A stretch of DNA of 64,000 nucleotides from an uncultured Alphaproteobacteria bacterium (GTDB taxonomy: Bacteria > Pseudomonadota > Alphaproteobacteria > RF32 > CAG-239): contig CALYAW010000002.1 in the NCBI GenBank assembly GCA_944393685.1, positions 79,586-143,585 of the forward strand. The letters are read 5' to 3'. The notes beneath the pieces were generated by a model. The model saw nothing but the letters and a program-made list of their open reading frames with translations, did no database searches and was not told where the DNA came from. The translations under genes were made by a program, and so were the position numbers. Below, one piece after another: positions 12,285 to 39,416 of this stretch. How positions within the stretch are numbered: the first letter of the stretch is position 1; each line of letters begins with the position of its first letter.

Positions 12285-12491
12285 TGTATTAATTTCTCCG
12301 TTATTGTGTTTTATTTCTTTTTAGCAGGCCGATTTTACAACATTTTATGAATATCTCAAGTACAAAAACCATCTTGAATCAAACAAATCACAAATAATTT
12401 TATTTTCCCCTTGTTTTTAGACAAAATTTGTGATAATGTCGATTTAATTAAAAGTATATATTCTGTATTTATTTACCTAAAATTAATTTTT

Positions 12492-25168: not shown

Positions 25169-26341
25169 CTACTCTACCCTTATATTTCTTGATATTGTTC
25201 GAACGATATCATACCCGTCCCAAAACACGCCGATATCCATAGCTTTGCCTATGGGAACGATGCGATCTATCCCTTTGACATTGGAATTTATCAAGCTATC
25301 ACAAAAAAAACTTGAGTCAACTCCAAAATAGGTAACGGTTTGAAATCTATCACTAATAATATGTAAAAGTTCTTTTATATCTGATAATGAATATTCATAA
25401 AAATATCCACTCTTTCCTCGATGGTTAACAACTCCATCATCTAATTTTGAAAGCTCTTCGCGATAAATCAAATTCTCTTCTCTGGTACAGCTCAAAAAAT
25501 TCGGATTATTTATCGCCTCCTCACACATTAGTGTATATTTGTCTATTGCTGAAGCATCTTGCAATAAATATTTTTGCTTAGACGCCTCATAGATTGCCTC
25601 CCAAAATATATCTCTGGCTTTGGATGAATCATTTTGCCATAAAATAAGTTGTGGAGAAGAGCAAGCGTTTTGATCCATTAAATATGTATCATTATAAAAA
25701 TTATCTGCCAACCTTTTAATTTCTTCAGAACTTGCTTCTATGATGCTGTGACCATCTATTATAGCTAAGGAATATCTATCAGCAAATGTGATATCTATGC
25801 ATCTCGGTTTTGTCGGCATTTGTTTGATTAAAGAAATCGTTTCATCTCCTCCCCATATCATACGAACATCTGCCATCTTACAAAATACAGATGTAATCTC
25901 ATCATCTCGAGGATATGTTATAAATGCTGTTCTTGTTTCTATTTCAGGATATTTTTTTAATACGTCCTTAAATATATCGCATAAAATTTCTACCTGCGGA
26001 TATTTCTTGCTGGGTAAACGCACAATGTTAGCATTACCAGCCAGTAATCCAAACAAAAAAGTAAATGCGAAATTAATCGGTATATTAGATGGTGCTATAT
26101 GAAAGCATAATCCTCGTCCCAACCATCTGTTGCATTCTCCGAAGTCTCTTTTTAACTTTTCTATATTTTTCTTTCTTCCCCAAAATGCTAACGCGGATAA
26201 ATCCGGATATTGACGGATTAAGGAAGATGTCATTATTTTCTCAGATACATTGGTTATAAAACTGCAAACATCTTCATTATACACCGATAATGGTGTTTGA
26301 ATGATATTTTCTGAACCTATAATAAAATTAACGTTTTTCAT
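25169..26341 (-). CDS. LuxC-like acyl-CoA/acyl-protein reductase
   Basis: 390 aa. LuxC family by length and overall pattern; compare V. cholerae O1 RfbO. Confidence 0.55.
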   Translation of the reverse strand: MKNVNFIIGSENIIQTPLSVYNEDVCSFITNVSEKIMTSSLIRQYPDLSALAFWGRKKNIEKLKRDFGECNRWLGRGLCFHIAPSNIPINFAFTFLFGLLAGNANIVRLPSKKYPQVEILCDIFKDVLKKYPEIETRTAFITYPRDDEITSVFCKMADVRMIWGGDETISLIKQMPTKPRCIDITFADRYSLAIIDGHSIIEASSEEIKRLADNFYNDTYLMDQNACSSPQLILWQNDSSKARDIFWEAIYEASKQKYLLQDASAIDKYTLMCEEAINNPNFLSCTREENLIYREELSKLDDGVVNHRGKSGYFYEYSLSDIKELLHIISDRFQTVTYFGVDSSFFCDSLINSNVKGIDRIVPIGKAMDIGVFWDGYDIVRTISRNIRVE

Positions 26342-27404
26342 ATGTGTCGCTACATCCTCTCAATTCGGCATTTTTTATTCGACCGTAAATTTTAAAGTAT
26401 TTTCCTTTTCGCCCGCAAGGACAATCGTCTTCTCCCAAGATTGCTCCTTCATCTTCTGTTAAAATAATATGTCCGGGATAACTTGTCGGAAGAACGGACA
26501 AAAGCTCAATCAAGCCTTTCTCTCCTATATTTGCTTCGGAAAAATCTTTTGCTCTACGAATAATCACATCAGAATAATTGGAACAATGCATGTGCCCGTG
26601 CTCACATTCAACAAAAACAGATCCTAATTGTTCTGCCATTCCGTAATAATTATATACCTTCACGTTTCCTAAACATTTTTGTATTCGACGATTAAATTCT
26701 AAAACATCGACTGCCTGATCTTTTAGTTTTTTCCAGCCGCCTATGTGAAATAAAATCGCGTTTTTGATATTAAACGAGATATTATTTTCTTCTAATGCTC
26801 GAACAACAAATTGCCATATCATATACGTGTATCCAAACATTAAGATTGGCTCATTTTCGTGCTCTTTGATAAAATCAGAAACTTTTTGGATATTAATATT
26901 CATATTCTCATCTAATGCATATGTACTATTTCTGCCAAAAATCGAAAAACCTATAATCCCGGCTCCTCGAGCAGAATACATCGTCCGATCTTTTTTTATC
27001 ATTTCTGTATCTAAAAGCAATAATGGCAACCTAGACTTACCAATAAAAGAAGAAATAATTTCATTCAATGTTTTGGTTTGATTGCGAACATTCTCTGCAT
27101 CCAAAAATATTTTAGAAACCGCCTGTCCGGATGTCCCTGATGATGTAAGCGTTTTGGTAATCTGTTCGTCCGAAACACTTTTTAATTCAAATTGTTTGAA
27201 AAGTCTGACAGGGATAAAAGGTAAATCTGCACTAGAAAAAACTTCTTGTGGATTGTACCCCAAGGCTTTAAGAATTTTGGCATATTCAGGACAATTTTTA
27301 TAATGTTTTACCGTAAGTTCTTTGAGAATTTGCGTCAAAACTTTATTTTTCTCGGATTTTGTTAATGAATATGGGGCTATCTGAAACAAGTCATTTAATG
27401 TCAT
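26328..27404 (-). CDS. LuxE-like acyl-protein synthetase
   Basis: 358 aa; LuxE family by N-terminal 'TKSEKNKVLTQILKELTVKHYKNCPEY' and a C-terminal Cys-containing region; compare V. cholerae O1 RfbN. Confidence 0.55.
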   Translation of the reverse strand: MTLNDLFQIAPYSLTKSEKNKVLTQILKELTVKHYKNCPEYAKILKALGYNPQEVFSSADLPFIPVRLFKQFELKSVSDEQITKTLTSSGTSGQAVSKIFLDAENVRNQTKTLNEIISSFIGKSRLPLLLLDTEMIKKDRTMYSARGAGIIGFSIFGRNSTYALDENMNINIQKVSDFIKEHENEPILMFGYTYMIWQFVVRALEENNISFNIKNAILFHIGGWKKLKDQAVDVLEFNRRIQKCLGNVKVYNYYGMAEQLGSVFVECEHGHMHCSNYSDVIIRRAKDFSEANIGEKGLIELLSVLPTSYPGHIILTEDEGAILGEDDCPCGRKGKYFKIYGRIKNAELRGCSDTYEKR

Positions 27405-28059
27405 CTTTTATTTCCTTTATAAAAACATCTTTCGGCTCAGAAAAGATTGCTCCCAATGCAGTATATAGATTCAAAACAGCCATATTTTGCGAGCTTATAC
27501 GCCCATTTAATTTCTTGTAGCCTTTTTCATATGCTGTTTTGCAAGCCGTTGCATATAATGCCATCGCAGCTCCGCTCATGCGATATTTTTCATCTACGGC
27601 GGCCAAATACACAAATAGCGAAGAAATATCCTCTTCTTGCAATGCTAAAAATCCTATAGGCTTATCCTTAAAGATGGCAACTAATACCTTATCTAGGTTG
27701 TTGACATATTCTTTTAAAACATATCTCGAAATATCTTTTGAACATAATGGAGCCACATGAAAACGCCTATCATAAAGAAATGAATCTTCTGCTATCTGTA
27801 AAATCTCATTTTTATATTCCGATGTTTCAATGATAGGTAAACGTATAAATTTATCCAAATCTATTGAACATTTATTTAAACTTACGGAGGCTTTTATGGT
27901 TCTGTCTGCAAAATAAAAGCCCTGCTGCTGCATCAATATTTCCGAATTAGCGGAACTAGGCAATTCAACACGCAAATATTGAGCTCCTGACGCATTCCAA
28001 TCTTGAATTTGTGCTGCATCATCGTTAAATACCTTAAAAGCTCCATAATCTTTTAACAT
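27391..28059 (-). CDS. GNAT-family N-acyltransferase (candidate PseH-like or acyl-group transferase)
   Basis: 222 aa; acetyl-CoA-binding-like region 'LAAVDEKYRMSGAAMALYATACKTAYEKGYKKL'. Confidence 0.5.
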   Translation of the reverse strand: MLKDYGAFKVFNDDAAQIQDWNASGAQYLRVELPSSANSEILMQQQGFYFADRTIKASVSLNKCSIDLDKFIRLPIIETSEYKNEILQIAEDSFLYDRRFHVAPLCSKDISRYVLKEYVNNLDKVLVAIFKDKPIGFLALQEEDISSLFVYLAAVDEKYRMSGAAMALYATACKTAYEKGYKKLNGRISSQNMAVLNLYTALGAIFSEPKDVFIKEIKDDIK

Positions 28060-29456
28060 AGTTTATTCAACTCCGCATATAAAACTTTTCCGGCTTCATT
28101 TTTGGGAATTTGTTTTAGATATTGAACATGAAATGCTGTAAAATTCAAATGTGTTTTATTGGCTACGAAACTTTGAATCTCTTTTATTCTTTTATCATCT
28201 GTAATAAAAATTGTCATAGCATCATCTTTTCCGGCACATACACAATCCAAATCTTGATATTGCGTTTTTATCAATCTCTCTGTTTCATCCAAATTAACTC
28301 TATTTCCAAAAATTTTCAAAAATCTTTTTTTTCGCCCGACAATACTATATACCCCATCTTTGTCAAACTTTGCCATATCTCCTGTCTGCAGCAATCCATG
28401 GCGCTCGTCTTCTTTGATTAGATCTTCTCCCTTTTCCGCATATCCAAGGGCCACATTATCTCCCTCATAAACAAGTTCTCCCACTGTTTCCGGTGTCGTA
28501 ATCGTTTGACCCTGCTCGTCTATCAAATGAAATTTTCCTCCCGGAATTGCAATTCCCATACAACCAAATTTTTCTAAGGAAATATTTGATGGAAGGTATC
28601 CCATCCGTGCCGTTGCTTCTGCTTGACCATACATAACGACAAACTCTTTTCCTTCTTTTTGGGCGTATTCGGCAAATTTTTGGTGCAAAATCGGCAATAT
28701 TTTTCCGCCGGCTTGCGTCATTGATTTTAAATATGGAAGTTTGCGCCTAAAAAACATTAGCTTATCAAGCATTTCATAGGTATAAGGAACGCCGGCAAAT
28801 GATGTAGCCTTCTGTTCACTAAACAATGTCCAAAATTCACGCTGCATTAATGTCTTATCTGTTAAAATTAATGTAGCGCCTACAGCCAGATGCGTGTTTA
28901 TTACCGATAAACCATATGTATAATTCATCGGTAACGTGGTAATTGGTCGTTCAGTTCCGTTTAAATGCAAATATTCAACTATAGAATGCGTGTTGGCTTC
29001 TAAGTTTTTGTAACTCTGACGAACAAATTTCGGAGAACCGGTGGAGCCAGATGTCGTTATTAGCAACGCTAATTCGTTGTACATTGGATAAGATGCTGTA
29101 TCCAATCTTTTAATCAGAGCATAATTACAATCTCGATAAACTTCTTCTCCTTCAAATTCACAAACTCGATTTTCTGGAAGCCATAAAAAATCTGGTTTAT
29201 AAAGATGTAAAAACGAAACCAATAAATCCTTATCTAGCTGCTCGTCCAGCATTAAAGGGACAATACCATGGTTGATAAATGCTGTATATCCTAATAAAGA
29301 GCCTATAGAATTTCGACATAAACAAAAGACTAAACATCTTTTGCCTACGGCAGCAGCCAATTTATCACCTTGTTGAGCGAGAAAAGCGTATGAGTAAGAT
29401 TTTCCCTCATCCGAAACAGCCGCTATCTTTGCTCCATATTGGCTAAAATTCCACAT
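28053..29456 (-). CDS. Stand-alone AMP-dependent adenylation enzyme (acyl-CoA/acyl-ACP ligase, DltA/RfbL-like)
   Basis: AMP-binding core motif 'LITTSGSTGSPKFV', and later 'YGQAEAT', 'GELVYEGDNVALGY', 'LQTGDMAKFDKDGVYSIVGRKK'; 467 aa. Confidence 0.85.
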   Translation of the reverse strand: MWNFSQYGAKIAAVSDEGKSYSYAFLAQQGDKLAAAVGKRCLVFCLCRNSIGSLLGYTAFINHGIVPLMLDEQLDKDLLVSFLHLYKPDFLWLPENRVCEFEGEEVYRDCNYALIKRLDTASYPMYNELALLITTSGSTGSPKFVRQSYKNLEANTHSIVEYLHLNGTERPITTLPMNYTYGLSVINTHLAVGATLILTDKTLMQREFWTLFSEQKATSFAGVPYTYEMLDKLMFFRRKLPYLKSMTQAGGKILPILHQKFAEYAQKEGKEFVVMYGQAEATARMGYLPSNISLEKFGCMGIAIPGGKFHLIDEQGQTITTPETVGELVYEGDNVALGYAEKGEDLIKEDERHGLLQTGDMAKFDKDGVYSIVGRKKRFLKIFGNRVNLDETERLIKTQYQDLDCVCAGKDDAMTIFITDDKRIKEIQSFVANKTHLNFTAFHVQYLKQIPKNEAGKVLYAELNKLC

Positions 29457-30144
29457 TTCTTATCTCCTTAATCTCAAAAACTCTTCCGTGTCCAGGAAAA
29501 ACCTTCATAAACTCAGGCATGCTATTAAGAAAAGGCTTTGTTTTTGAAAGATATTTTTGTGAATTTCCACCCGGAAAACGTGTGATTACAGGCGTATTAT
29601 AAATTAAAGAATCTCCTGTAAAAATTGCCACATTATTTAAAATAAAGCAACAACTTCCTGGTGAATGTCCCTCACAGTGTTTGCAAAAAATCTCTTGCTC
29701 TTGCCAGATAAGAGACAACTCTTCTCCAAAGGTTTTATCCGCTGTTATACAAAAAGGAAAAATATCGTCAGTCTGTTCCAAAAACTCTTGTGTTAGATGT
29801 GTTCCTTCCTTTTCATCTTTGTATTCTAACGCTATTCTTATCAGGCTGGGATAATTGTTTCGACTATCAACAATAAATTCGGCACAGTTTTTTTGGCAGA
29901 TTAACTCTGTCGCATATCTCTTTTGTAAACGAGGATAACCTATAACATGATCAATATGTTCATGTGTTAAAAGTATCGTTATCTTTTGGGGAGAATATTG
30001 GGTCAAAAATTTATCCAACTCTTTACTCTCATTAGGATCAATAACCAGAGCTTCTTTGTTGGCACATAAAACATATGAGTTTGCATCAATGAATTTTGAT
30101 GCAAACTTATATATGTTTAATCCGTTTAAAACAATTTTTTCCAT
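29443..30144 (-). CDS. MBL-fold metallo-hydrolase
   Basis: 'LLTHEHIDH' HxHxDH motif. The ORF track start (30228) would overlap the ACP gene by 71 nt, so I prefer the internal Met 'MEKIVLNGL'. Confidence 0.7.
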   Translation of the reverse strand: MEKIVLNGLNIYKFASKFIDANSYVLCANKEALVIDPNESKELDKFLTQYSPQKITILLTHEHIDHVIGYPRLQKRYATELICQKNCAEFIVDSRNNYPSLIRIALEYKDEKEGTHLTQEFLEQTDDIFPFCITADKTFGEELSLIWQEQEIFCKHCEGHSPGSCCFILNNVAIFTGDSLIYNTPVITRFPGGNSQKYLSKTKPFLNSMPEFMKVFPGHGRVFEIKEIRNVEF

Positions 30145-30157
30145 ATTCTCTCGAGAT

Positions 30158-30394
30158 TTAAAAAGTGATGTCGTATTTGGCCAAAATTTCCTGACCTTTT
30201 TCAAAACTGGATAAATCAACAATATCATCTGGCTCTAACATAATATCAAAAGCCTCTTCCAATTGAGCAACCAACCCCATATGTCCAACAGAATCCCAGG
30301 CCGGAATATCTTGAAATTTTAGTTTTTTTGCAGCTTCTTCATCAATATCAAATGCCTGACAAAACGCTTGCGTATACTTTTCAATATTACTCAT
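30158..30394 (-). CDS. Acyl carrier protein (ACP #1)
   Basis: 78 aa; a phosphopantetheine attachment serine in 'DIPAWDSVGHMGLVAQLEEAF'. Confidence 0.8.
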   Translation of the reverse strand: MSNIEKYTQAFCQAFDIDEEAAKKLKFQDIPAWDSVGHMGLVAQLEEAFDIMLEPDDIVDLSSFEKGQEILAKYDITF

Positions 30395-31369
30395 TTAACA
30401 TATCTCCTTATAAGTATTTTCAATTTTTAATGCAATTTTCTCTGGCGTAAGGCCCGCCTGTTCCAATAGATATGAATAGCTTGCCGCATGTGGATATTCC
30501 CCTTGTGTCCCAATTATTAAATGAGGCGGGCGCTTCTTTAGCAGAGAAAGATTTTCTGCAACCGCACCTCCCAATCCGCCATATATTGAGTGTTCTTCAA
30601 CTGTAACAATTAATTTATGACTGAGACTTTCCTTAACGGCTTGTTTGTCCAACGGCTTGATGGTGTGCATATCCATAATTGTAGAGCTTATACCCTTTGA
30701 GGATAATATTTCTGCTGCTTTTAGAGAATTATAGACCATACTTCCTGTCGCTATAATTGCAACATCTTTTCCTTCGCGTAAAGTAATAGCCTTACCTATC
30801 TGAAAATCAAAGTCTTCCTTATATACAATAGGTAAATTATTCGGGCCTCCTATACGAATATATGTTGGACTAAAAACTTCTGATGTCGCTTGTAGTACCT
30901 TTACCATTTGTGTTGCATCACTTGGCGATAAAACCGTAACCTTGGGAAAAGACCGATATAAGGCTATGTCATGTAAAGCATAATGCGTCGGTCCACAATC
31001 TCCTTGTGTTAGCCCCGAAAAAATTCCTATCAGTTTTATATTAAGTCCCATATAGGCCATAGCAACATGTGTTTGATCTGCGCAACGGAGAGAGGTAAAC
31101 GCCGCTTGAAATGCTAAGAAAGGAATATAACCTTCATTAGATAACCCTGCTGCAACTCCAATGGCATTTTGTTCTGAAATTCCCATGTTGATAAAATTAT
31201 CTGGATATTGATTTTGTATTCTATGAAAACCGATCAATGCTCCTTGATCTGCAGTCATGGCTATAATATTCTTTCTTTCGCCAATCATATCATAAAGAAC
31301 TTTGCCTAATGTTCCTCGTTGTCCCAATAAAGCCCATGTCCTTATGTCTGTGGAAGAAAATTTATACAT
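30395..31369 (-). CDS. Transketolase C-terminal section (Pyr plus C-terminal domains), split-transketolase subunit B
   Basis: 324 aa; 'ADQTHVAMAYMGL', 'GPTHYALHDIALYRSFP' and a C-terminal domain. It pairs with the adjacent N-terminal subunit gene. Confidence 0.85.
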   Translation of the reverse strand: MYKFSSTDIRTWALLGQRGTLGKVLYDMIGERKNIIAMTADQGALIGFHRIQNQYPDNFINMGISEQNAIGVAAGLSNEGYIPFLAFQAAFTSLRCADQTHVAMAYMGLNIKLIGIFSGLTQGDCGPTHYALHDIALYRSFPKVTVLSPSDATQMVKVLQATSEVFSPTYIRIGGPNNLPIVYKEDFDFQIGKAITLREGKDVAIIATGSMVYNSLKAAEILSSKGISSTIMDMHTIKPLDKQAVKESLSHKLIVTVEEHSIYGGLGGAVAENLSLLKKRPPHLIIGTQGEYPHAASYSYLLEQAGLTPEKIALKIENTYKEIC

Positions 31370-32180
31370 TTTTTAATTCCTCCATTGCTTGTTCATATTG
31401 TTGCTGTGTTAAAGGATGAACGTGCCATTCTGGATTATTTTCAATGAATGAAACACCTTTTCCTTTGATTGTCCTTGCAATAATGGCTATCGGCTTTTTT
31501 GTTGAACGATGCGAAAAAGCGTTGACTAAATCAGGAATATTATGCCCATCTATAGTTAATACCTCAAATCCAAAAGATTGCCATCGTTCTGATAGCTTAT
31601 CTTTATTCACAATATCTTGCGTTGGGGCGTCTAGCTGGAGCTTGTTCTCATCAATAATAACCGTTATATTATCTAATTGGTGATGTGAAATAAAAGATGC
31701 TGCTTCCCATATAGAACCTTCATCACATTCTCCGTCTCCGATAACAACATAAATATGAGCATTATTATTTTGTTTTCTTAAAGCTAAGGCTGTGCCTGCC
31801 GCCAAAGATAGCCCCTGTCCTAAAGAACCTGATGAAAACTCAATACCAATAGTTGGATCTTTTCTTGGATGTGTCCAAAAATTTTTACTATCTTGTTTAA
31901 AAGAAAATAACTCATTTTCTGAGATGAAACCGGCTTCTTTCAAAACTGCATATAGTGCTATTGCTCCATGCCCTTTACTTAAAATCAGTCTATCTCTTTC
32001 TGGATTACAGACGTTTTTGGGAGATATATTCATAGTATGTAAATATAAGGTTGTTAGAATTTCTGAAAGCGATAATCCCCCTCCTATATGAGCTCCGTAA
32101 CTTCCTGCATGGAGTGTCATCCTCAATATATTTTTACGAACTTGCTGAGCGGTATTTATCAGCATTTTCATGTCATTCAT
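31362..32180 (-). CDS. Transketolase N-terminal section (TPP-binding), split-transketolase subunit A
   Basis: 'GAHIGGGLSLSEILTTLY', a ThDP-binding 'VIGDGECDEGSIWEA' (GDG...E...N-type motif), and 'SKGHGAIALYAVL'. Confidence 0.85.
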   Translation of the reverse strand: MNDMKMLINTAQQVRKNILRMTLHAGSYGAHIGGGLSLSEILTTLYLHTMNISPKNVCNPERDRLILSKGHGAIALYAVLKEAGFISENELFSFKQDSKNFWTHPRKDPTIGIEFSSGSLGQGLSLAAGTALALRKQNNNAHIYVVIGDGECDEGSIWEAASFISHHQLDNITVIIDENKLQLDAPTQDIVNKDKLSERWQSFGFEVLTIDGHNIPDLVNAFSHRSTKKPIAIIARTIKGKGVSFIENNPEWHVHPLTQQQYEQAMEELKNV

Positions 32181-32917
32181 ATTTTCCCTCCATTTGCAAT
32201 AATCTCCATTCCATTGATAAAAGAAGAATTATCACTCGCTAAAAAGGCTGCTATTTCTGCAATCTCGTAAGGACTTCCTTTTCTTTTTAAGGCACATTCT
32301 TCAATCATACGTTTTTCAACAAAATCTTTTACCGATTTGCCCATTGATGTCTCTATCAAGCCTGGTGCGATAGCATTAACACGAATGTTAAAAGCACCTA
32401 ATTCTGCTGCTAGTGTCTTTGTCCATGCTGCCAATGCCGCCTTTGCTGTACCATAAGCTGAATTACCCGCTGATAAATCTATGCCGGAAACAGATGTGAT
32501 ATTTATAATAGAACCTGATTTTTGTAAACACATTTTTCGCAAGACAATTTGAGTAATTTCCATGGCGGAAAAAAGGTTAATATCGTATACTTCTTTTATT
32601 TGAGAAACTGGTGTTCGCAGAAAACTAACTCCATGACCCACACCGGCATTGTTAACTAAAATATCAATATTATTTTTGCCTAAGACAAATTTTTTTAGCT
32701 CATTGCGCATAGATAAAGTATCTCTCAAATCAAAAAAAACCATGTCTATGGTGGTATTGCAGGATGTTTCTGTTTTTTTTACAAATTCAATAAAATCTTC
32801 TGTCTCTTTTCTAGCATGCGCTATAATATGTGCCCCTTTTTGAGCAAAAATTTCTACCATTGCTCTACCTATTCCTCGATTGGAGCCTGTGATAAGAGCT
32901 GTCTTGTTTCTAAGCAT
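32177..32917 (-). CDS. Short-chain dehydrogenase/reductase (FabG-like 3-oxoacyl-ACP reductase) #1
   Basis: 'ALITGSNRGIGRA' Rossmann motif, 'NNAG' and a YxxxK catalytic dyad (YGTAKAAL). Confidence 0.8.
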   Translation of the reverse strand: MLRNKTALITGSNRGIGRAMVEIFAQKGAHIIAHARKETEDFIEFVKKTETSCNTTIDMVFFDLRDTLSMRNELKKFVLGKNNIDILVNNAGVGHGVSFLRTPVSQIKEVYDINLFSAMEITQIVLRKMCLQKSGSIINITSVSGIDLSAGNSAYGTAKAALAAWTKTLAAELGAFNIRVNAIAPGLIETSMGKSVKDFVEKRMIEECALKRKGSPYEIAEIAAFLASDNSSFINGMEIIANGGKI

Positions 32918-34070
32918 TTTGCCCTCTCTTAAAATATTCTATCCAATATTTTATTTTCTCTTCCCTATTTAATTTACCTTCCGGGGTTTTATATTTGCTT
33001 ATTCCGTTTGTTTTTACATCTTTAAAATCGACAACTCCAAATCCCCACGATAATCCTACGCCAAAAGATGCTAAACAAAGATATTGATGTTTCTTCTCGG
33101 AAAGTTCTCTGCATATATCTGTAACTATAGAAGCTGTTCCACAGTTACCATACAAAGAAAAAGTATCCGTTGACCATTTTTCTTTTGGTAATCCGGCATA
33201 CATAGCTACTGTTTTCACAATTTGCTTATTAGCTTGATGAAAAGCAAAATAATCAATATCTGATATTTCTTTACCGGTATAATTTAGAATTTTCTCAATT
33301 CCTTTGGGACCTACATCGGTCGTAAATTTAAAGACATCAATTCCTTTCATTATTTCATCCCATAAATGCCACACATTTCCGGATTGATCTTTTTCTTCAA
33401 TGTCGATTATGTCTTTTTGAATGGGCAATGCCCAACCTCCAGCAGGGGCAATTATCTTGTCCCAATCTTTTCCTCTTGTTCCCGTGTAAAAATAAGCTGT
33501 TTTTTCTTCTGCTGTCCACTCTAGAAGAGTGGCTGTTCCCGCATCACCAAACAACATATTGGAATTGCGGTTGCGTCTATCTGAGTGTGTGCTCGAAATT
33601 TCTCCCGCAAGCAACAAGCATTTTTTCGAAGCGCCGCTTGATATTAACGAATGAGCTAACCATAATCCATGCACATAAGCAGAGCACGCCAATCCTGTAA
33701 TATCAAAACAGGTACAATCTTCACTCAAATTTAAACGCCCTTGTAAAATACATGCTGATGCTGGATATTTATAATCTAGTGATGTTGAAACCATAATTAA
33801 TGTATCGATTGAATCCTTGTCTATATTTAAAAATTCTATCAAATCACGTGCTGCTGCTTCGCATAGATCACAGTTCGTCGTTCGTTCATCAGCAACATAA
33901 CGGGTTCCTAGCCCTAAAATTTTTTTATTACGTTCCAATAGTTTCGGATCGTTGTTAAAAAATTCTATTTCATCATCTATATTAATGAAATGTTCAGGAA
34001 CAACAGCCGTAATCCCACTAATCTTGACGTGACTAAATTTTGATTTAGGCATTGCTATATTGCTCCACAA
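32910..34070 (-). CDS. KAS III (FabH)-like ketoacyl-ACP synthase #1
   Basis: 386 aa; 'GLACSAYVHGL' active-site Cys region and a C-terminal 'HQANKQIVKT' (ACP_syn_III_C His/Asn region). Confidence 0.75.
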   Translation of the reverse strand: MWSNIAMPKSKFSHVKISGITAVVPEHFINIDDEIEFFNNDPKLLERNKKILGLGTRYVADERTTNCDLCEAAARDLIEFLNIDKDSIDTLIMVSTSLDYKYPASACILQGRLNLSEDCTCFDITGLACSAYVHGLWLAHSLISSGASKKCLLLAGEISSTHSDRRNRNSNMLFGDAGTATLLEWTAEEKTAYFYTGTRGKDWDKIIAPAGGWALPIQKDIIDIEEKDQSGNVWHLWDEIMKGIDVFKFTTDVGPKGIEKILNYTGKEISDIDYFAFHQANKQIVKTVAMYAGLPKEKWSTDTFSLYGNCGTASIVTDICRELSEKKHQYLCLASFGVGLSWGFGVVDFKDVKTNGISKYKTPEGKLNREEKIKYWIEYFKRGQNA

Positions 34071-34789
34071 TCAATTATATAATTTTGGGCTGTTATCCAT
34101 TCTGCTTGTTTGGATAGTAAAAATACAACAGTATTAGCAACATATTGGGGTTTCCCTATACCCATAGGATATTTACCTTCTGCAAAAGATCTGGAAATTT
34201 CATCTGCCATGTTGGTAGAAATCAGAGATGGCGAAACACAATTTACGCGAATATATGATGGCGCTAGCTCTCGAGCAATTGCTTGCATCGTTGCTATTAA
34301 AGCTCCTTTTGATCCGGCATATTCTGTCATTCCCGGATCACAATGGACTCCTCCACTTGAAGCAATACAAACTACAGAGCTACCTTTGCCATTATTATTA
34401 CGTTTATCTGTAAATCCTTTTGTCATAAAAACAGGAGAAAAATAATTAATATTAAATAATTTCTGCATCTCTGTAAAATCGATGGATTTTAGCGGCAGTA
34501 TCCTCCCTACTCCCGCACAATTTGCTAGTCCTTGAAATTTTCCATATTTATCCTTTAGTTCTTTTACATAACTTGGTAGCTGCTCTATATTTTCTGCTAA
34601 ATCTTTTATCTCTATATAGATATTCTCAGGATGCTTGGATTTTGTCTTCATTCCCAATAAACGTTCTTCATTTCTGGCTATAGCTATTACGCTTGCTCCT
34701 AATTCATTCAATCGTAGCGCAACCGCTTCTCCTATGCCTGATGAAGCCCCCGTTACAATAAATCTTTGTTCTTTGGTAAATTGTATCAT
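34055..34789 (-). CDS. Short-chain dehydrogenase/reductase #2
   Basis: 'FIVTGASSGIGEA', 'NCAG', 'YAGSKGAL' YxxxK. Confidence 0.8.
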   Translation of the reverse strand: MIQFTKEQRFIVTGASSGIGEAVALRLNELGASVIAIARNEERLLGMKTKSKHPENIYIEIKDLAENIEQLPSYVKELKDKYGKFQGLANCAGVGRILPLKSIDFTEMQKLFNINYFSPVFMTKGFTDKRNNNGKGSSVVCIASSGGVHCDPGMTEYAGSKGALIATMQAIARELAPSYIRVNCVSPSLISTNMADEISRSFAEGKYPMGIGKPQYVANTVVFLLSKQAEWITAQNYIIDCGAI

Positions 34790-35007
34790 TATAGTCCCGC
34801 CTTTTTTGCTATGTCTCCAATCGTTTTCATCTCTTTATAATCTTTCATTGTCGTCTTGATATTAAAGTTCTTTTCCAAAAAGGCCATCGTTGCCATAACA
34901 GATAGAGAATCCCATTCATCTAAATCTTCTAAAACCGTTTCATAGTTCAAGTCTTCTTCTGTTTGTAATACATCTTGCATGTTTGTCAAAAATTCTTCTT
35001 TATTCAT
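34789..35007 (-). CDS. Acyl carrier protein (ACP #2)
   Basis: 72 aa; 'LDEWDSLSVMATMAFLE' with a DSL phosphopantetheine site. Confidence 0.8.
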   Translation of the reverse strand: MNKEEFLTNMQDVLQTEEDLNYETVLEDLDEWDSLSVMATMAFLEKNFNIKTTMKDYKEMKTIGDIAKKAGL

Positions 35008-36134
35008 TCTTCTGCTCCTTTAAAATAGTTAGTCCAATATTCTAGTTGTTGTTTGCGAGTTGGTGTATTTTTAGGGGTAATATACTTTGAAACTCCACCA
35101 TTATACATTCCCGATAAATCAAGTGCGGCACCTCCCCATGACAGCCCTATACCAAATGTACATAAAATCACTTTCTTCATCTCTTTATCTTGATCGCACA
35201 AAACCGTTGCAACTGAATTTGTCGAATTATTGGCATATTTGGAAAATACATCTATGGGGGCCTTTTCTGCAGGAATTTCTGCTTTGGAAATGATATTTTC
35301 AACAATTTGCTTATTGGCTTGATGAATTGCAAACAAATCAATATCATCCTTATCCCAAGCCGCCGCTTTCATTGTCTCTTTTAATAATGTGGGGGCAACA
35401 TCCATTGTAAAATTAAAGACATCTTCTCCCTTTAATATCCCTTGGCTTAACAAGGTCTTGTTGCCAGACACATCTTCAACATATAAATCTATGGTATCTT
35501 TACTTAAAGGCAGACGCGTTCCTCCTAACGGATGAACTATTTTGTTCCACCCCAAACCATCCGTTCCCGTAACAAAATACGCTTTTCTTTCTTCTGACGT
35601 GTATTTCAAAATGGTTGCTGAAGCAGTATCTCCAAATACTGGCGCTACCTTTCGATTCGTCTGATCATTTATTTTAGCGCACAAATCCCCGGCCAATAAT
35701 AAACATGTTTTGAAAGCTCCTGTCGAAACAAAGGCATGAGCTGTCATGAGAGCGTGGATATATCCCGAACAACCTAAATTTATGTCTAATGTTGTACAAC
35801 TCTTTTTTAATCTTAATCTTCCGTGAGCAACACACGCATCACATGGCTCTGGATAATCCGGCTTCTGATTAACAAAAATCAATAAGTCAATATCTCCTCG
35901 GTCAATACTCATTTCTGTCAATAGTTTTTCTGCTGCATCAACAGCCATATCAGTCACTGTTGTCAATTCGTCCGCAATATAACGTCGACCATATCCCATC
36001 ATTTTTTTGGCTCGAGCTAATTTTTTGGGATTGTTGTCAAAATATTGCATTTCATCATCTATATCGATGAAATGTTCCGGAACAACCGTTTTTATACCTG
36101 ATATTTGAACATGTGTGTAAGAAGATACTGTCAT
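35004..36134 (-). CDS. KAS III (FabH)-like ketoacyl-ACP synthase #2
   Basis: 376 aa; 'LGCSGYIHAL' Cys region and 'HQANKQIVEN'; paralogous to 32910..34070. Confidence 0.75.
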   Translation of the reverse strand: MTVSSYTHVQISGIKTVVPEHFIDIDDEMQYFDNNPKKLARAKKMMGYGRRYIADELTTVTDMAVDAAEKLLTEMSIDRGDIDLLIFVNQKPDYPEPCDACVAHGRLRLKKSCTTLDINLGCSGYIHALMTAHAFVSTGAFKTCLLLAGDLCAKINDQTNRKVAPVFGDTASATILKYTSEERKAYFVTGTDGLGWNKIVHPLGGTRLPLSKDTIDLYVEDVSGNKTLLSQGILKGEDVFNFTMDVAPTLLKETMKAAAWDKDDIDLFAIHQANKQIVENIISKAEIPAEKAPIDVFSKYANNSTNSVATVLCDQDKEMKKVILCTFGIGLSWGGAALDLSGMYNGGVSKYITPKNTPTRKQQLEYWTNYFKGAEE

Positions 36135-36871
36135 TTCTTATTCTCTTCATATAGTTTACGTAATACATACATTTCTTTGATGATTATTTTTCCAAAATGC
36201 TGATAAATTCTAAGCATCGGCAAATTATTTGAGGATATGACGGTCTTTAATTTAACGCTTGATCTATCTCCGGAAAGAGATAAACCATAACCAATGTGTT
36301 TGAACTCTGCAAAGACACCTCCCAGTATTCCTTCATCGATTTGCTTTTCTTCATTACGTATATTTATACCAAACGCAACCTCATCTTCCCTTACTTTCAT
36401 TACCCACATCCACGAATTCGGATTATTATATAAATCCAAACACCAATTTTGATAACGTTTACAAGCAATCTCTTTTCCAAAATAAGGATCCAAACTTATT
36501 CTGTCGGTATCAAACATATCTGGAGTAATTTTAGATATTATTCGTTCCCATTCCTTTTTATCCTTGGAAACAACTACTCTTTCGGCTTCTTGCATAAATT
36601 CAGAGATATCTTCTGATGTTTCTTTGGGCTCAAAATAATCTTTAATATGGAATTGTGTCTCCATAAATCTAAAGCCTTCATCTTCCAGTTTATGTAATGC
36701 TTGCAAGTTACCAACGGGCATCTTAATTACAACATAGGCTCCTGAAAAATTTTGTTCATGAATTACTTTTAAAGTCTGTTTAAAATCTTTCAAGTCTCTC
36801 CGTTCGAGGGTAATTTCATATGCATCACGATTTAAATTTCGATTTTCCCAAAATGCCTTTATGATTTTCAT
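36131..36871 (-). CDS. WecD-like (TDP-fucosamine N-acyltransferase-like) GNAT protein
   Basis: 246 aa; N-terminal region 'NLQALHKLEDEGFRFMETQF' resembles the WecD N-domain 'LDALQQLGFSLVEGEV'. From memory of E. coli WecD; weak. Confidence 0.35.
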   Translation of the reverse strand: MKIIKAFWENRNLNRDAYEITLERRDLKDFKQTLKVIHEQNFSGAYVVIKMPVGNLQALHKLEDEGFRFMETQFHIKDYFEPKETSEDISEFMQEAERVVVSKDKKEWERIISKITPDMFDTDRISLDPYFGKEIACKRYQNWCLDLYNNPNSWMWVMKVREDEVAFGINIRNEEKQIDEGILGGVFAEFKHIGYGLSLSGDRSSVKLKTVISSNNLPMLRIYQHFGKIIIKEMYVLRKLYEENKK

Positions 36872-38289
36872 AATCCCAGTTCCTTGAAATGGTAATTTCC
36901 TTCTATTGTTTTTATGTCAAAATCATTCGGCATATCAATATGTTCAATAACCTCACACAAACGACTTTTGACGATACTGCCTTCATAGCTATTTAAATAG
37001 TGCTGATAATTTTGAGTAACGACTCGTTGACATTCTTTCTTATCTGATAGTAATTTTTCTACTCCCAATAAGAGTTCTTCTGCTTTCTCATACATATATG
37101 GAAAATTTTGCATCTGGTATTCATGAAAAGACCAATGAGAATTCTCGCGATTAATTTTGACAACATACGGAACTCTTAAACGCATTAAATCAATCATTGT
37201 CAAAGCTGATGATACTGGAAAACTGTCAATAAATACATCTGCACACTTAAAAATAAGCTCATATTCTTGTGAAAAGGGAATAAAAATTAAACGGTTCTTA
37301 CAATTCGAATCACAGAATATTTTATCTATAATCACTTGTTGCTTATTATTTATATTGGATATTATAATGTGTTTTACAGATGGATTTCTTTCCAATAATT
37401 TCTTGATTGTATAAAAATATTCTGAACCCGTACTATCAAAAAACTTATAAGCACTTGCTCCGGACATTGTGCATAAATCACCTTCTTCAATACCTAATTC
37501 TTTTCTTTTGGCGCTTATTTCTTCATTTGTAAATGATGGGAATTCTTCAACTCTTTTGCTTAACATCGGGATAAAAACCGTTTTATTAAAATGGCGCAAG
37601 TGTTGCGTTATATAGGCTGATGTCGGCAATGCTTCCAAAGATATATCTGCAAAACTTATGCCTAAATTAGGATAATGAGATGCATGCGGACAATAGATAA
37701 TCTTTATGTCCGTATACTTTTTTACTAAAGACAAAGTCATCGTTCCAAATATATCATCAGGATTAATAAAAACAAATAAGGCTATTGGATTAAATTTTGT
37801 TATTTGACTATATAAATTTCTCAATTTTTTTTGCCAACATAGAAATGAAAAATTTTCTCCTGATATAATCGCATTTTCTGACAAACTCAACATCTGCTCC
37901 TGAGCAATATTATAGCTGCGACTTATTTTTGTAAAAAATATCTGCTGTTTATAAGTATCGTTCAGAGCTGTTGTTTGTCTTTCAATGCATTTTGTATGGC
38001 CCCCACTGCTATATATCTCTGTTACTAAATAACCAACACGATTTTTATGAGGCTTAGTTTTGCTATAATCTATTATAGGGCATAAACTACTAATTTCAGC
38101 ATCCAATAAATGAGTGTCAAAATCTTTATTTTCCCTTATTTTTTCTATTATCGCTGATAATTTTGTTCTTTTGCTCCAAACAGGAATGTCAAAAATGCGA
38201 ATAAAAATCTTACCTTTTTTCTCTTGTAAACGAATAATCGATAATCCTAAAATCTTAAAACTGTTATTTACCCATCCAAAAAGTTTCAT
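36868..38289 (-). CDS. Putative glycosyltransferase (GT-B-like; possibly WecF/PseG-like)
   Basis: 473 aa; 'EIYSSGGHTKCIERQ' resembles the G-x-GH-x-x-R nucleotide-sugar motif of MurG/PseG/WecF-type enzymes, but only weakly. Confidence 0.3.
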   Translation of the reverse strand: MKLFGWVNNSFKILGLSIIRLQEKKGKIFIRIFDIPVWSKRTKLSAIIEKIRENKDFDTHLLDAEISSLCPIIDYSKTKPHKNRVGYLVTEIYSSGGHTKCIERQTTALNDTYKQQIFFTKISRSYNIAQEQMLSLSENAIISGENFSFLCWQKKLRNLYSQITKFNPIALFVFINPDDIFGTMTLSLVKKYTDIKIIYCPHASHYPNLGISFADISLEALPTSAYITQHLRHFNKTVFIPMLSKRVEEFPSFTNEEISAKRKELGIEEGDLCTMSGASAYKFFDSTGSEYFYTIKKLLERNPSVKHIIISNINNKQQVIIDKIFCDSNCKNRLIFIPFSQEYELIFKCADVFIDSFPVSSALTMIDLMRLRVPYVVKINRENSHWSFHEYQMQNFPYMYEKAEELLLGVEKLLSDKKECQRVVTQNYQHYLNSYEGSIVKSRLCEVIEHIDMPNDFDIKTIEGNYHFKELGL

Positions 38290-39416
38290 CGTTTACTCCA
38301 AAATTCTATCGTTTTATCGATGACTTTTGTTTGAGCATCTTCACTCAAATTATAATACATCGGTAACCGAACCAACGTATCGCTAACTTTATTTGTTACT
38401 GCCATATCCCCATTTGCACGTCCATATTTTTGTCCAGCAACTGATGAATGAAGCGGAATATAGTGAAAAACACACAAAATACCATTAGATTTCATAAAAT
38501 CTATATATTGCGTTCTAGATGCCAAATCAGGACAACGTAGATAATATATGTGAGCATTAGGCTCGCATTCTGAGGGAAAACTTGGTCGTATAATCCCCTT
38601 TTCTTCCAATTGTGCAAAAGATGAATGATAATTATTCCACAAATGCAACCTCTTTTTTTTAATATCATCCGCGATTTCTAGAACAGAATATAGGTAAGCG
38701 CCGATTATATCACTGGGAATATATGAAGAGCCTTTGTCTACCCATGTATACTTATCCACTTGTCCTCTTATAAATTTATTGCGATTTGTTCCTTTTTCAC
38801 GGATGATTTCTGCTCGTTCTGCCAGACACTCATCATTTGTAACAAATAAACCACCTTCTCCTGAAGTAATGTTTTTTGTCTCATGAAAACTGAAACACCC
38901 CATATCTCCTATTGTTCCCAGAGGTTTTCCTTTGTAATAGGCATCAAACGCATGAGCCGCATCTTCAATTACTAATAATTTATGACGTTGAGCTATATCC
39001 ATTATAGTATCCATCTCACAGCCCACTCCCGCATAATGCATCGGTACGATTGCTCTGGTTTTCGGAGTAATTGCCGCTTCAATTTTATTTTCGTCAATAT
39101 TTAGGGTGTCCGCTCTGATATCTACAAAAACGGGAGTAGCACCCTGCATTACAAAGGCATTGGCTGTGGTACAAAAGGTAAAAGATGGCATAATAACTTC
39201 ATCGCCTGATTTTATGTCCGCCAAAATTGCTGCCATTTCTAGAGCAGCCGTGCCCGAATGAACTAATGCCGCCGTTCTACAGTGCAGTTTTTCTTTGAAG
39301 CTCTCACTACATAGTTTAGAGTATTTCCCATTTCCCGATGTGTGGCCTGTTTTTAGAACATCTGATATATATTCTATGGTTTTATTTGTGTATACTGGGA
39401 CATTAAAATTTATCAT
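38286..39416 (-). CDS. WecE-like TDP-4-keto-6-deoxyhexose 4-aminotransferase (DegT family), first gene of the operon
   Basis: Long colinear similarity to E. coli WecE as I recall it: 'AALEMAAILADIKSGDEVIMPSFTFCTTANAFV', 'IVPMHYAGVGCEMDTIMDIAQRHKLLVIEDAAHA', 'GCFSFHETKNITSGEGG', 'AEIIREKGTNRNKFIRGQVDKYTWVDKGSSY'. Confidence 0.8.
   Translation of the reverse strand: MINFNVPVYTNKTIEYISDVLKTGHTSGNGKYSKLCSESFKEKLHCRTAALVHSGTAALEMAAILADIKSGDEVIMPSFTFCTTANAFVMQGATPVFVDIRADTLNIDENKIEAAITPKTRAIVPMHYAGVGCEMDTIMDIAQRHKLLVIEDAAHAFDAYYKGKPLGTIGDMGCFSFHETKNITSGEGGLFVTNDECLAERAEIIREKGTNRNKFIRGQVDKYTWVDKGSSYIPSDIIGAYLYSVLEIADDIKKKRLHLWNNYHSSFAQLEEKGIIRPSFPSECEPNAHIYYLRCPDLASRTQYIDFMKSNGILCVFHYIPLHSSVAGQKYGRANGDMAVTNKVSDTLVRLPMYYNLSEDAQTKVIDKTIEFWSKR

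Follow-up and report, generated by a model that had tools for sequence, protein, structure and literature searches.

What is a transketolase doing among genes for carrier-protein-bound acyl groups and amino sugars? The question is raised by a stretch of 64,000 nucleotides (the window) from an uncultured alphaproteobacterium (GCA_944393685.1, contig CALYAW010000002.1), in which a split, ie two-gene, transketolase (TK) is accompanied by two ketoacyl-acyl carrier protein synthases of the FabH-like type (KAS III), two short-chain dehydrogenases/reductases (SDR) and acyl carrier proteins (ACP). A first reading of positions 30395-36134, made from the sequence alone, had listed KAS III, ACP, SDR, KAS III, SDR and the split TK within a sugar-modification locus. 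All of these genes are present there on the minus strand, and the sugar-modification role was borne out, but the listed genes are the upstream half of a larger unit: the second ACP (ACP2, 30158-30394) lies just outside, and the unit runs 5.2 kb further, to the LuxC-type gene ending at 25169. The whole is an 11-kb cassette of 13 genes (25169-36134) in the order KAS III-a, ACP1, SDR-a, KAS III-b, SDR-b, TK-like N subunit (TKN), TK-like C subunit (TKC), ACP2, metallo-beta-lactamase (MBL)-fold hydrolase, AMP-forming ligase, GNAT N-acyltransferase, LuxE and LuxC, which extends to 36871 if the WecD-like acyltransferase at its head is counted in. Our preferred answer, held tentatively and somewhat short of being probable, is that the cassette builds hydroxylated acyl groups on its own carrier proteins and uses them to N-acylate 4-amino-6-deoxy sugars or pseudaminic acid precursors.

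The transketolase-like pair and its genetic partners

The cofactor site of the TK-like pair was found intact, as the first reading had stated. The sequence GDGECDEG occupies residues 148-155 of TKN, and the cofactor motif for thiamine diphosphate (ThDP), GDGECDEG...DEN, is kept, as are the cofactor Glu (GISEQN), the His residues of GAH, SKGH, THP and EWH in the N subunit, and the GPTH His. These cofactor and catalytic motifs hold in the orthologues, minor exceptions aside. The closest solved relatives are the two subunits of the split transketolase of Carboxydothermus hydrogenoformans (PDB 6yak/6yaj; 241 and 200 bits), with human transketolase next. Of the residues with which human transketolase binds the substrate phosphate, Ser345 corresponds to Leu45, His416 to Phe117 and Arg474 to Gly in TKC of the window, and Asp424 (yeast Asp477), which binds a hydroxyl of the acceptor, corresponds to Cys125; Arg318, a further phosphate ligand, is kept in the window, most relatives having Cys, Ser or His instead. 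His416, Asp424 and Arg474 are canonical in none of 13 cassette orthologues and in none of the 120 closest database homologues, where the position of Asp424 is taken by Leu, Cys, Phe or Tyr (Ser in one). The picture was the same when 1.84 billion representatives, each TK-like homologue standing for a cluster at 50% identity, were searched: the full canonical set was missing in all 46 top-scoring sequences, and among the best 150 there were 89 with none of the three residues and 29 canonical in the manner of the Carboxydothermus enzyme.

Against the NCBIfam transketolase model NF004559 the N and C subunits score 287 and 212 bits (cut-off 488), although the split layout by itself would lower the score per subunit; TKC scores against DXS almost as high as against TK. 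As the substrate-binding residues fail while the catalytic machinery is intact, the pair is filed, by its sequence, as a ThDP carboligase of the TK fold and not as a sugar-phosphate transketolase. The family to which it belongs is a large, diverse subfamily with a remodelled, mostly hydrophobic substrate pocket, whose signature differs by subtype (GDCG, GILG, GQYG, GMFG). Among the cassette proteins, conservation is lowest in the TK subunits and SDR-b (39-72% identity), and this, together with the variation of the pocket residues, suggests that they set the diversity of the products.

Related loci, about 100 in number, were compared in two sets (numbered here with the prefix L). For the first, KAS III-a was scanned against one genome per species, which gave 13 loci onto which all window proteins were mapped. 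For the second, an alignment of ACP2 (motif AWDSVGHM) was scanned against metagenome contigs; at least 519 stretches were obtained, of which 80 loci were kept and their open reading frames annotated against the cassette proteins and extra families. For co-occurrence, the counts cover the 24 metagenome loci in which ACP2 has 6 kb or more of sequence on either side (the flanked loci), and for adjacency all loci. The cassette recurs in at least three phyla, and its gene order in the 13 genome loci and in many of the 80 metagenome loci, an arrangement far beyond chance. It is collinear in Alphaproteobacteria metagenome-assembled genomes (MAGs), Gastranaerophilales (Cyanobacteriota), Bilophila wadsworthia ATCC 49260 and Mailhella (Desulfovibrionaceae), the MBL gene being variable, and a Spirochaetia MAG has a collinear cassette beside genes for a hexose 2,3-dehydratase, an oxidoreductase, an aminotransferase and an ABC transporter.

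In the flanked loci ACP2 is accompanied by the AMP ligase and LuxE in 24 of 24 cases, by LuxC in 22, an SDR in 21, a hexapeptide acyltransferase in 18, the TK pair in 17, KAS III in 12, ACP1 in 10, the optional MBL-fold gene in 9, an Ldh/Mdh-like gene in 8 and a NeuB-like gene in 7. KAS is absent from 9 of the 17 that bear a TK pair. A gene of the SDR-b type stands immediately 5' of TKN in 44 of 56 TK pairs, KAS-free loci included; ACP2 follows immediately 3' of TKC in 40 of 61 cases, and a ligase or MBL gene immediately 3' of ACP2 in 52 of 97. By these counts the TK-like pair and SDR-b belong with ACP2, the ligase and LuxE/LuxC, not with KAS III. Two earlier claims are not supported by them, namely that each KAS III has an SDR of its own (SDR-b goes with TKN, and is 27% identical to SDR-a) and that TK plus ACP is a rare pairing, since the two are so often adjacent and at least 519 metagenome stretches encode this type of ACP.

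The modules also occur singly. Loci L063, L065 and L103 are KAS-free and read SDR-SDR-TKN-TKC-ACP2-ligase-LuxE-LuxC; L107 has the genes of L063 with ACP2 in front, and L070 has one SDR. Such loci adjoin PglF/PglE/PglC/PglD-like or WecE/WecD-like genes (sugar 4,6-dehydratase, aminotransferase, acyltransferase). Conversely, L010 carries the trio KAS III-a, ACP1 and SDR-a by itself beside a WecE-type gene and a protein of 473 amino acids that is also found in the window. The core of ACP2, AMP ligase, LuxE and LuxC is found without any KAS as well, and in nearly every case a ThDP enzyme adjoins it: most TK-free loci have a ThDP enzyme of the ALS/POX family (592 amino acids) and/or a NeuB-family synthase at the position of the TK pair, so that a C-C-forming enzyme of some kind is nearly universal. 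In L039 (10244-13553) a FabA-like dehydratase, the ALS/POX-family enzyme (592 amino acids) and a NeuB-family synthase lie between ACP2 and the ligase; further TK-free variants are L035, L038, L041, L047, L054, L060, L084 and L093. The NeuB-like proteins of the cassettes are 53-67% identical to one another (85-100% in the closest copies) and just 31% identical to the PseI of the window. The NeuB-like gene was considered as a direct replacement of TK and rejected, the ALS-like enzyme, which is usually also present in TK-free loci, being the closer functional counterpart. Several cassettes carry a FabA-like dehydratase. Two TK pairs are present in L022 and in L027, and in L088 (1916-14689) and L101 (1878-15669) a set SDR-TK-LuxE-LuxC is followed by a second, SDR-TK-ACP2-ligase-LuxE-LuxC. 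These duplications and iterated sets suggest either repeated cycles of reduction and extension or a TK that acts directly on ACP2.

Among the core proteins, ACP2 scores 17.7 bits against PP-binding, under the cut-off (20.8); it has the invariant WDS motif and aligns with ACP1. The closest PDB relatives of the AMP ligase are oxalate-CoA ligases (E 6e-18). The C-terminal Cys of LuxE (RGCSD) is conserved, as is the catalytic Cys of LuxC (DQNACSS, by alignment to PDB 7xc6); NCBIfam scores of 48 and 75 bits (cut-offs 750 and 550) make the two proteins relatives, not orthologues, of those of the Lux system. In many related loci LuxC is directly followed by a dehydrogenase gene of the Ldh/Mdh family (eg L020:20987-21122, L022:15823-16749, L023:14850-15800, L025:11641-12528 and L026:15595-16581), which may supply or modify a 2-hydroxy or 2-oxo acid for the pathway; the window has no such gene, and LuxC is followed there by PseB.

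Both KAS III enzymes match ACP_syn_III and ACP_syn_III_C with 58-65 bits (Pfam cut-offs 24-27). KAS III-a and KAS III-b fall below the cut-offs of the FabH models NF006829 (183 and 175 bits; cut-off 249) and TIGR00747 (159 and 150 bits; 292), and of their best NCBIfam model, NF009519 (250 and 269 bits; 436). The Cys-His-Asn triad, which the first reading had proposed as a check, was examined by alignment to PDB 4efi and is intact in KAS III-a (LGCSGY, IHQAN, YANNS) and KAS III-b (LACSAY, FHQAN, YGNCG), and in all orthologues aligned (16/16 and 14/14, respectively). The enzymes thus look catalytically competent, and the possibility that they are non-catalytic decoys was rejected because the triads are intact. 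The supposed paralogy of the two sets holds for the KAS III pair (46% identity, E 6e-125, a shared C-terminal tail included) and not for the SDRs or the ACPs, which are 27% identical in each case. Across the 13 genome loci KAS III-a is 63-80% identical. ACP1 scores 26.6 bits against PP-binding (cut-off 20.8) and has the invariant WDS serine motif. Both SDRs have a TGxxxGxG cofactor motif and the Ser/Tyr-x3-Lys catalytic motif (TGASSGIG and YxxSK are conserved in SDR-a), and both score under every FabG equivalog cut-off of NCBIfam. The tail shared by the two KAS III proteins is an extension of about 35 amino acids (proteins encoded at 35004-35110 and 32910-33020 at this end) that closes with a conserved YW..YFKG-like motif; it is also seen in the relatives L008, L009, L010, L012 and L039, and alignments to 4efi end before it.

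Possible products and competing explanations

From the gene content, motifs, residue losses and adjacency described above we infer substrates, an order of steps and products for the cassette. The AMP ligase would load a small hydroxy- or dicarboxylic acid onto ACP2. LuxE and LuxC would then activate a carboxyl group and convert it to an aldehyde, a second carboxyl being tethered to the ACP; a substrate with two carboxyl groups is assumed because two carboxylate-activating enzymes are present. The TK-like enzyme would form a C-C bond on the LuxC aldehyde by adding a two-carbon ketol, and SDR-b would reduce the new ketone. NeuB enzymes condense phosphoenolpyruvate with an aldehyde, and an aldehyde made by LuxC would fit as the electrophile since a NeuB-like synthase can occupy the TK position. 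Finally, the WecD-like GNAT would move the polyhydroxyacyl group to an amino sugar; the acceptor here is likely the product of PseC, which would give an N7-acyl pseudaminic acid. If malate were the acid, 2-hydroxy-4-oxobutanoyl-ACP2 and the C2 ketol would yield 2,4,6-trihydroxy-5-oxohexanoyl-ACP2, and reduction by SDR-b a 2,4,5,6-tetrahydroxyhexanoyl (3-deoxyhexonoyl) group.

The remaining genes, KAS III-a, ACP1, SDR-a and KAS III-b, would constitute a minimal type-II fatty-acid-like line. Dehydratase and enoyl reductase were not found in the operon with Pfam or NCBIfam, in agreement with the first reading, and short 3-hydroxy- or 3,5-dihydroxyacyl-ACP is the natural prediction because both are absent. 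By analogy, one or two decarboxylative condensations with malonyl-ACP, with ketoreduction, would give a short 3-hydroxy or 3,5-dihydroxy acyl group on ACP1; the earlier prediction of short 3-hydroxyacyl-ACP products is in this respect supported, a precedent being the set of Flavobacterium psychrophilum (PMC6519341). That SDR-a might serve both KAS enzymes is consistent with the single ketoreductase for two condensations in that set.

Two glycans provide possible counterparts. In Treponema denticola, the PseI of which is TDE0960, flagellin carries a pseudaminic acid with a mass of 450.2 Da (PMC9481697), and its N7 acyl group is 2-methoxy-4,5,6-trihydroxyhexanoyl (PMC13439194). By its chemistry, this acyl skeleton matches the product postulated from malate and the C2 unit, the O-methyl group apart. 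In Aeromonas piscicola the flagellin pseudaminic acid derivative has a mass of 376.14 Da, and an unexplained terminal moiety of 102 Da has been described too (PMC7874193). Replacing an acetyl group of Pse5Ac7Ac (316.13 - 42.01) by C4H6O3 (102.03) gives 376.15, and a dihydroxybutyryl group from malate fits. More broadly, reduction to an aldehyde by LuxE/LuxC, TK-type carboligation and ketoreduction on a dedicated ACP could be a chain-building logic new for glycans, which might be iterated or combined with KAS III and offer a route to the 3-deoxy-aldonoyl groups of T. denticola and the 376-Da Aeromonas derivative; this wider proposal is a possibility on the unlikely side. A literature search on T. 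denticola together with transketolase, LuxE or TDE0954-TDE0959 gave nothing useful.

Whether the window specifies one acyl group or two is a related matter. The two acyltransferases and two aminotransferases of the window, and the occurrence of each module by itself, favour two separate groups. Several observations count against the scheme as set out. All its substrates are read from sequence, and the link to the T. denticola glycan is one of chemical likeness. With the phosphate site lost, candidates for the C2 donor are hydroxypyruvate, pyruvate and a ketose without phosphate. In L088 and L101 the two LuxE-LuxC and two SDR-TK sets surround one ACP2, which a single dicarboxylate starter fits poorly, and in L027 two TK pairs and ACP2 stand without a ligase or LuxE/LuxC nearby, which would fit a TK that acts on, or loads, ACP2. 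Many two-module cassettes (eg L025, L026, L039 and L046) have only one acyltransferase, and the region upstream of the Bilophila cassette shows one amino-sugar pathway only; these last two points favour one composite chain over two groups.

The strongest rival is accordingly a serial one, in which the ACP2 product, an unusual polyhydroxylated starter, primes KAS III-b and then KAS III-a, each of which adds a C2 unit derived from malonyl on ACP1, with ketoreductions, to give one C8-C10 polyhydroxy acyl group for one acyltransferase. In its favour, besides the single acyltransferase of many two-module cassettes and the single pathway in Bilophila, the modules stay physically together in a fixed order in more than 20 loci, and a second ACP was seen wherever KAS loci were examined: ACP1 was matched in 10 of the 12 KAS-bearing flanked loci, and in L037, L045 and L048 divergent second ACPs, missed by the search, were recognised by eye. 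Cassettes with one KAS, moreover, retain the KAS III-b type beside the TK module (L025, L028, L031 and L069). Use of acyl-ACP primers by KAS III is, however, an assumption of the model; each module is also found solitary beside sugar-amine genes (KAS in L010; TK in L063, L103 and L107), so that each can supply an acyl donor; and the window itself holds two WecD-like acyltransferases and two aminotransferases. We regard a serial chain as unlikely, though with enough in its favour to be kept in mind.

A different ThDP chemistry on ACP2, following the logic of 2-hydroxyacyl-CoA lyase or DXS, is less probable again. Here the enzyme would decarboxylate a 2-oxoacyl species (oxalyl-ACP2 or a free 2-oxo acid) and add the product to the LuxC aldehyde to give 2-hydroxyacyl-ACP2. 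The oxalate-CoA ligases nearest to the AMP ligase point this way (if weakly, at E 6e-18), as do the close DXS score of TKC, the ALS/oxalyl-CoA-decarboxylase-superfamily enzyme at the TK position in most TK-free loci and the proximity of TK and ACP2, adjacent in 40 of 61 cases and left by themselves as TK-TK-ACP2 in L027. An external oxidant would be unnecessary, and the iterated LuxE/LuxC and TK sets could be accounted for if the donor adds a new carboxylate. Against this, the pair retains the His residues by which true transketolases hold the dihydroxyethyl intermediate, its nearest solved structures are transketolases, the split enzyme first and the human one next, and TK-family enzymes are not known to act on thioesters.

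The first reading had the split TK generate glycolyl-ACP, to prime two parallel KAS III/SDR sets and yield dihydroxyacyl- or 3-hydroxybutyryl-ACP. TK-like enzymes do feed glycolyl-ACP in quinocarcin-type pathways, and in the window an ACP gene directly follows the TK genes, with KAS III genes close by and the ThDP motif and His residues intact. Formation of a glycolyl thioester from dihydroxyethyl-ThDP is a two-electron oxidation, though, and neither a lipoyl/E2 domain nor another oxidant was found in the operon; the ketose-phosphate donor site is lost; 9 of the 24 flanked loci have TK without KAS; SDR-b is tied to the TK pair and not to KAS III-b; and no role is left for the AMP ligase and LuxE/LuxC that travel with TK. 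This origin of the starter we consider very improbable. Scarcely credible is ordinary housekeeping, ie a pentose-phosphate transketolase with copies of FabH, FabG and AcpP or, as a variant, a long-chain 'liposugar': Pfam and NCBIfam do label the proteins as transketolase, FabH-like and FabG-like, and papers on Aeromonas and Enterobacteriaceae islands suggested a fatty acid or liposugar role (PMC7874193, PMC4875605), but a housekeeping transketolase or fatty acid synthesis copy was rejected on account of scores under the NCBIfam cut-offs (TK 287/212 against 488, FabH 183/175 against 249), the lost phosphate-binding residues and the strict synteny with sugar-amine genes across phyla, and the liposugar by the elongating KAS I/II, dehydratase and enoyl reductase not found in the window, without which its genes cannot make long saturated chains.

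The operon, its sugar genes and its relatives

The cassette of our preferred reading, ie the one that builds hydroxylated acyl groups for amino sugars, sits in a single minus-strand operon from about 39416 to 16503, in which neighbouring genes overlap or abut at stop and start codons (Table 1). Gene calls from metagenomes start KAS III-b at an ATG (34052), which gives 380 amino acids and is the probable true start. The WecE-type gene scores 567 bits against NCBIfam NF008687 (cut-off 375).

Table 1. Genes of the operon in the window, from the first to the last; strand and supporting matches as found
Feature	Position	Strand	Evidence and remarks
WecE-type 4-aminotransferase (dTDP-4-amino-4,6-dideoxyhexose)	38286-39416	-	Pfam DegT_DnrJ_EryC1 E 4e-92; first operon gene
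Protein of 473 aa, family unassigned	36868-38289	-	No match in Pfam, NCBIfam
unk246, putative WecD-like N-acyltransferase paralogue, 246 aa	36131-36871	-	Directly upstream of KAS III-a; no match in Pfam, NCBIfam
KAS III-a, 376 aa	35004-36134	-	Pfam ACP_syn_III + ACP_syn_III_C
ACP1, 72 aa	34789-35007	-	Pfam PP-binding E 7e-6
SDR-a, 244 aa	34055-34789	-	Pfam SDR families
KAS III-b, 386 aa from TTG	32910-34070	-	Pfam ACP_syn_III + ACP_syn_III_C
SDR-b, FabG-like reductase, 246 aa	32177-32917	-	Pfam SDR families
TK-like N subunit, 272 aa	31362-32180	-	Pfam Transketolase_N E 2e-38
TK-like C (pyrimidine-binding) subunit, 324 aa	30395-31369	-	Pfam Transket_pyr + Transketolase_C
ACP2	30158-30394	-	Invariant AWDSVGHM motif
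MBL-fold hydrolase, putative thioesterase	29443-30228	-	Weak GloB, SolJ matches; probable start 30144
AMP-forming ligase, presumed ACP2 loader	28053-29456	-	Found with ACP2 in 24/24 flanked loci
WecD-like GNAT N-acyltransferase	27391-28059	-	NCBIfam NF008212 dTDP-Fuc4N acyltransferase E 3e-6, near full length
LuxE-type acyl-protein synthetase	26328-27404	-	Pfam LuxE E 5e-59, 200 bits
LuxC-type acyl reductase, aldehyde-forming	25169-26341	-	Pfam LuxC 96 bits
Pseudaminic acid (Pse) block	17928-25161	-	Directly after LuxC
PseB	24157-25161	-	502 bits, above NCBIfam equivalog cut-off
PseC	23064-24164	-	488 bits, above NCBIfam equivalog cut-off
PseF	22384-23064	-	283 bits, above NCBIfam equivalog cut-off
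TIM-barrel protein		-	Pse block, after PseF
AAC(3)-like N-acetyltransferase fusion with DUF4910/DUF2172 (aminopeptidase-like) + HTH_47, 683 aa	19580-21631	-	In Pse block
Formyltransferase-like protein		-	Pse block, between AAC(3)-like fusion and PseI
PseI	17928-18947	-	479 bits, above NCBIfam equivalog cut-off
Last operon gene, 470 aa, putative transferase	16503-17915	-	Weak Capsule_synth (KpsS-like), BFO_1060-family glycosyltransferase matches

The WecE-type aminotransferase likely makes an amine acceptor. Homologues of the 473-amino-acid protein, which may be a glycosyltransferase or a nucleotide-sugar hydrolase, occur beside a WecE-type gene or the KAS III-a trio in L010, L011, L013, L015 and L030. 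The protein unk246 is conserved in L011, L013, L060 and L070, and by BLASTP it is 23% identical to the cassette GNAT over 213 amino acids (E 2e-5); the two are, on this similarity, candidate N-acyltransferases that use acyl-ACP. The PseG and PseH models matched none of the operon proteins; either WecD-like GNAT, the AAC(3)-like fusion or the 473-amino-acid protein may stand in for the two enzymes. Because the GNAT adjoins PseB/PseC and PseH was not found, it could take the PseH step, giving an N7-acyl pseudaminic acid. As for the AAC(3)-like fusion, it may take over or alter N-acyl steps, and the last gene of the operon is a candidate pseudaminic acid transferase. In L024 an Antibiotic_NAT gene precedes the SDR-TK genes.

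Flagellin, Maf, Wzx and Wzy genes were not found in the window. The flanks of the operon are housekeeping genes: prolyl-tRNA synthetase is backed by Pfam, and methionyl-tRNA synthetase, tmk, holB and tatD are putative, being named from their translations. Between the putative methionyl-tRNA synthetase gene and the operon lies an open reading frame of 409 amino acids (TTG start; 12411-13640, plus strand) with no Pfam match. An Rfam scan of the window gave two tRNAs and nothing else, and promoter and terminator scans at the ends of the operon did no better than on shuffled sequence. The identical contig is present in several metagenome assemblies, and the nearest genomes are gut and rumen Alphaproteobacteria MAGs.

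In Bilophila (L013) the cassette is preceded by the genes GT2-RmlB-RmlA-RmlC-RmlD-WecE, followed by those of the 473- and 246-amino-acid proteins. Since this copy follows RmlBACD/WecE genes, the amino sugar that the cassette serves differs from host to host, and the cassette is a portable, mobile acyl-group factory that is not specific to pseudaminic acid. Compared with the window, L017 is highly similar in ACP2 (97%), LuxE (91%), ligase (85%), LuxC (74%), GNAT (70%) and MBL (67%), and less so in SDR-b (45%), TKN (46%) and TKC (47%), with the KAS module at 62-81% (KAS III-a 63%). Read as a mosaic, these identities imply recombination with a breakpoint between TKC and ACP2. A fusion gene of 814-842 amino acids is inserted within the cassettes of L008 (9394-11922) and L023 (4835-7279); by Pfam the L023 product has ferredoxin, FrhB/FdhB-like and polysaccharide pyruvyl transferase domains, and that of L008 is homologous to it by BLAST alone.

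Flagellins, S-layers and O-antigens owe features of their antigenicity to unusual N-acyl groups carried by nonulosonic acids and 4-amino-6-deoxy sugars, and few of the enzymes that make these groups are known; for those that modify nonulosonic acids, a study of Tannerella describes knowledge as scarce (PMC5378307). Metagenomes from gut, rumen and other sources often contain the cassette, which is also present in the cultured pathobiont Bilophila wadsworthia. Were the preferred reading true, it would give a function to a large subfamily now annotated plainly as 'transketolase' (of the best 150 clusters at 50% identity, at least 89 lack the canonical residues), show a way to the flagellin acyl group that T. 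denticola needs for motility, and supersede the 'fatty acid / liposugar' reading of the LuxC/LuxE genes in flagellar glycosylation islands. A carrier-protein-linked, aldehyde-extending ThDP enzyme could also serve biocatalysis.

Comparison with known systems

The rfbK-rfbO genes of Vibrio cholerae O1 are said to have been assigned their roles, in a proposed synthesis of tetronate (2,4-dihydroxybutyryl), by Morona et al. in 1995 (Gene). The perosamine of this organism is acylated with tetronate (PMC6479008), and group II flagellar glycosylation islands of Aeromonas carry orf1-orf5, for an ACP, a reductase, an AMP synthetase, LuxE and LuxC, beside pse genes (PMC7874193). In composition the cassette resembles both sets, which likewise adjoin amino-sugar or pse genes and comprise ACP, AMP ligase, LuxE, LuxC, an alcohol-forming reductase and an N-acyltransferase. 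Unlike the cassette, the V. cholerae and Aeromonas sets as described have neither a ThDP enzyme nor KAS III, and their products are C4; these pathways are themselves predictions.

The KAS module has its counterpart in F. psychrophilum, where wfpC-wfpG, with two KAS, one ACP and one ketoreductase, are predicted to place 3,5-dihydroxyhexanoyl on Qui2NAc4N (PMC6519341). Again by composition, the two have in common two KAS, an ACP, a ketoreductase and an acyltransferase, with dehydratase and enoyl reductase absent, and both are predicted to N-acylate a 4-amino-6-deoxy sugar. The F. psychrophilum set differs in being reported without TK, ACP2, AMP ligase or LuxE/LuxC, and its acyltransferase is PglD-like (hexapeptide), not WecD-like.

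In the glycolyl-ACP system of quinocarcin and naphthyridinomycin, ketose phosphates are used and a lipoyl-bearing E2 oxidises the C2 unit. The cassette shares with it a transketolase-family ThDP enzyme genetically coupled to a dedicated ACP, and differs from it in its lost phosphate site and in the lipoyl/E2 gene, since no lipoyl or 2-oxoacid-dehydrogenase domain is present in any operon gene or in the Pfam lists of the related loci. With the split TK of Carboxydothermus it shares the two-subunit layout, the ThDP motif, the cofactor Glu and the catalytic His residues; in the Carboxydothermus and human enzymes the Ser, His and Arg that bind phosphate are retained, together with the Asp of GEDG, whereas the cassette enzymes have hydrophobic or small residues there. 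The likeness to the Lux fatty-acid reductase (7xc6) is in the LuxE and LuxC Pfam families and both catalytic Cys residues; the relationship is distant (LuxC E 7e-8 to 7xc6), LuxD and luciferase are absent, and the context of the cassette implies short polar acids, not myristate.

A full-text literature search found no paper that ties a transketolase to ACP/FabH/LuxE-type glycan genes, and such genes are not mentioned in the paper on Tannerella pseudaminic acid (PMC5378307). Parts of the cassette were known before, the core genes from flagellar islands and the two-KAS set from F. psychrophilum; the cassette as a whole probably contains new enzymology.

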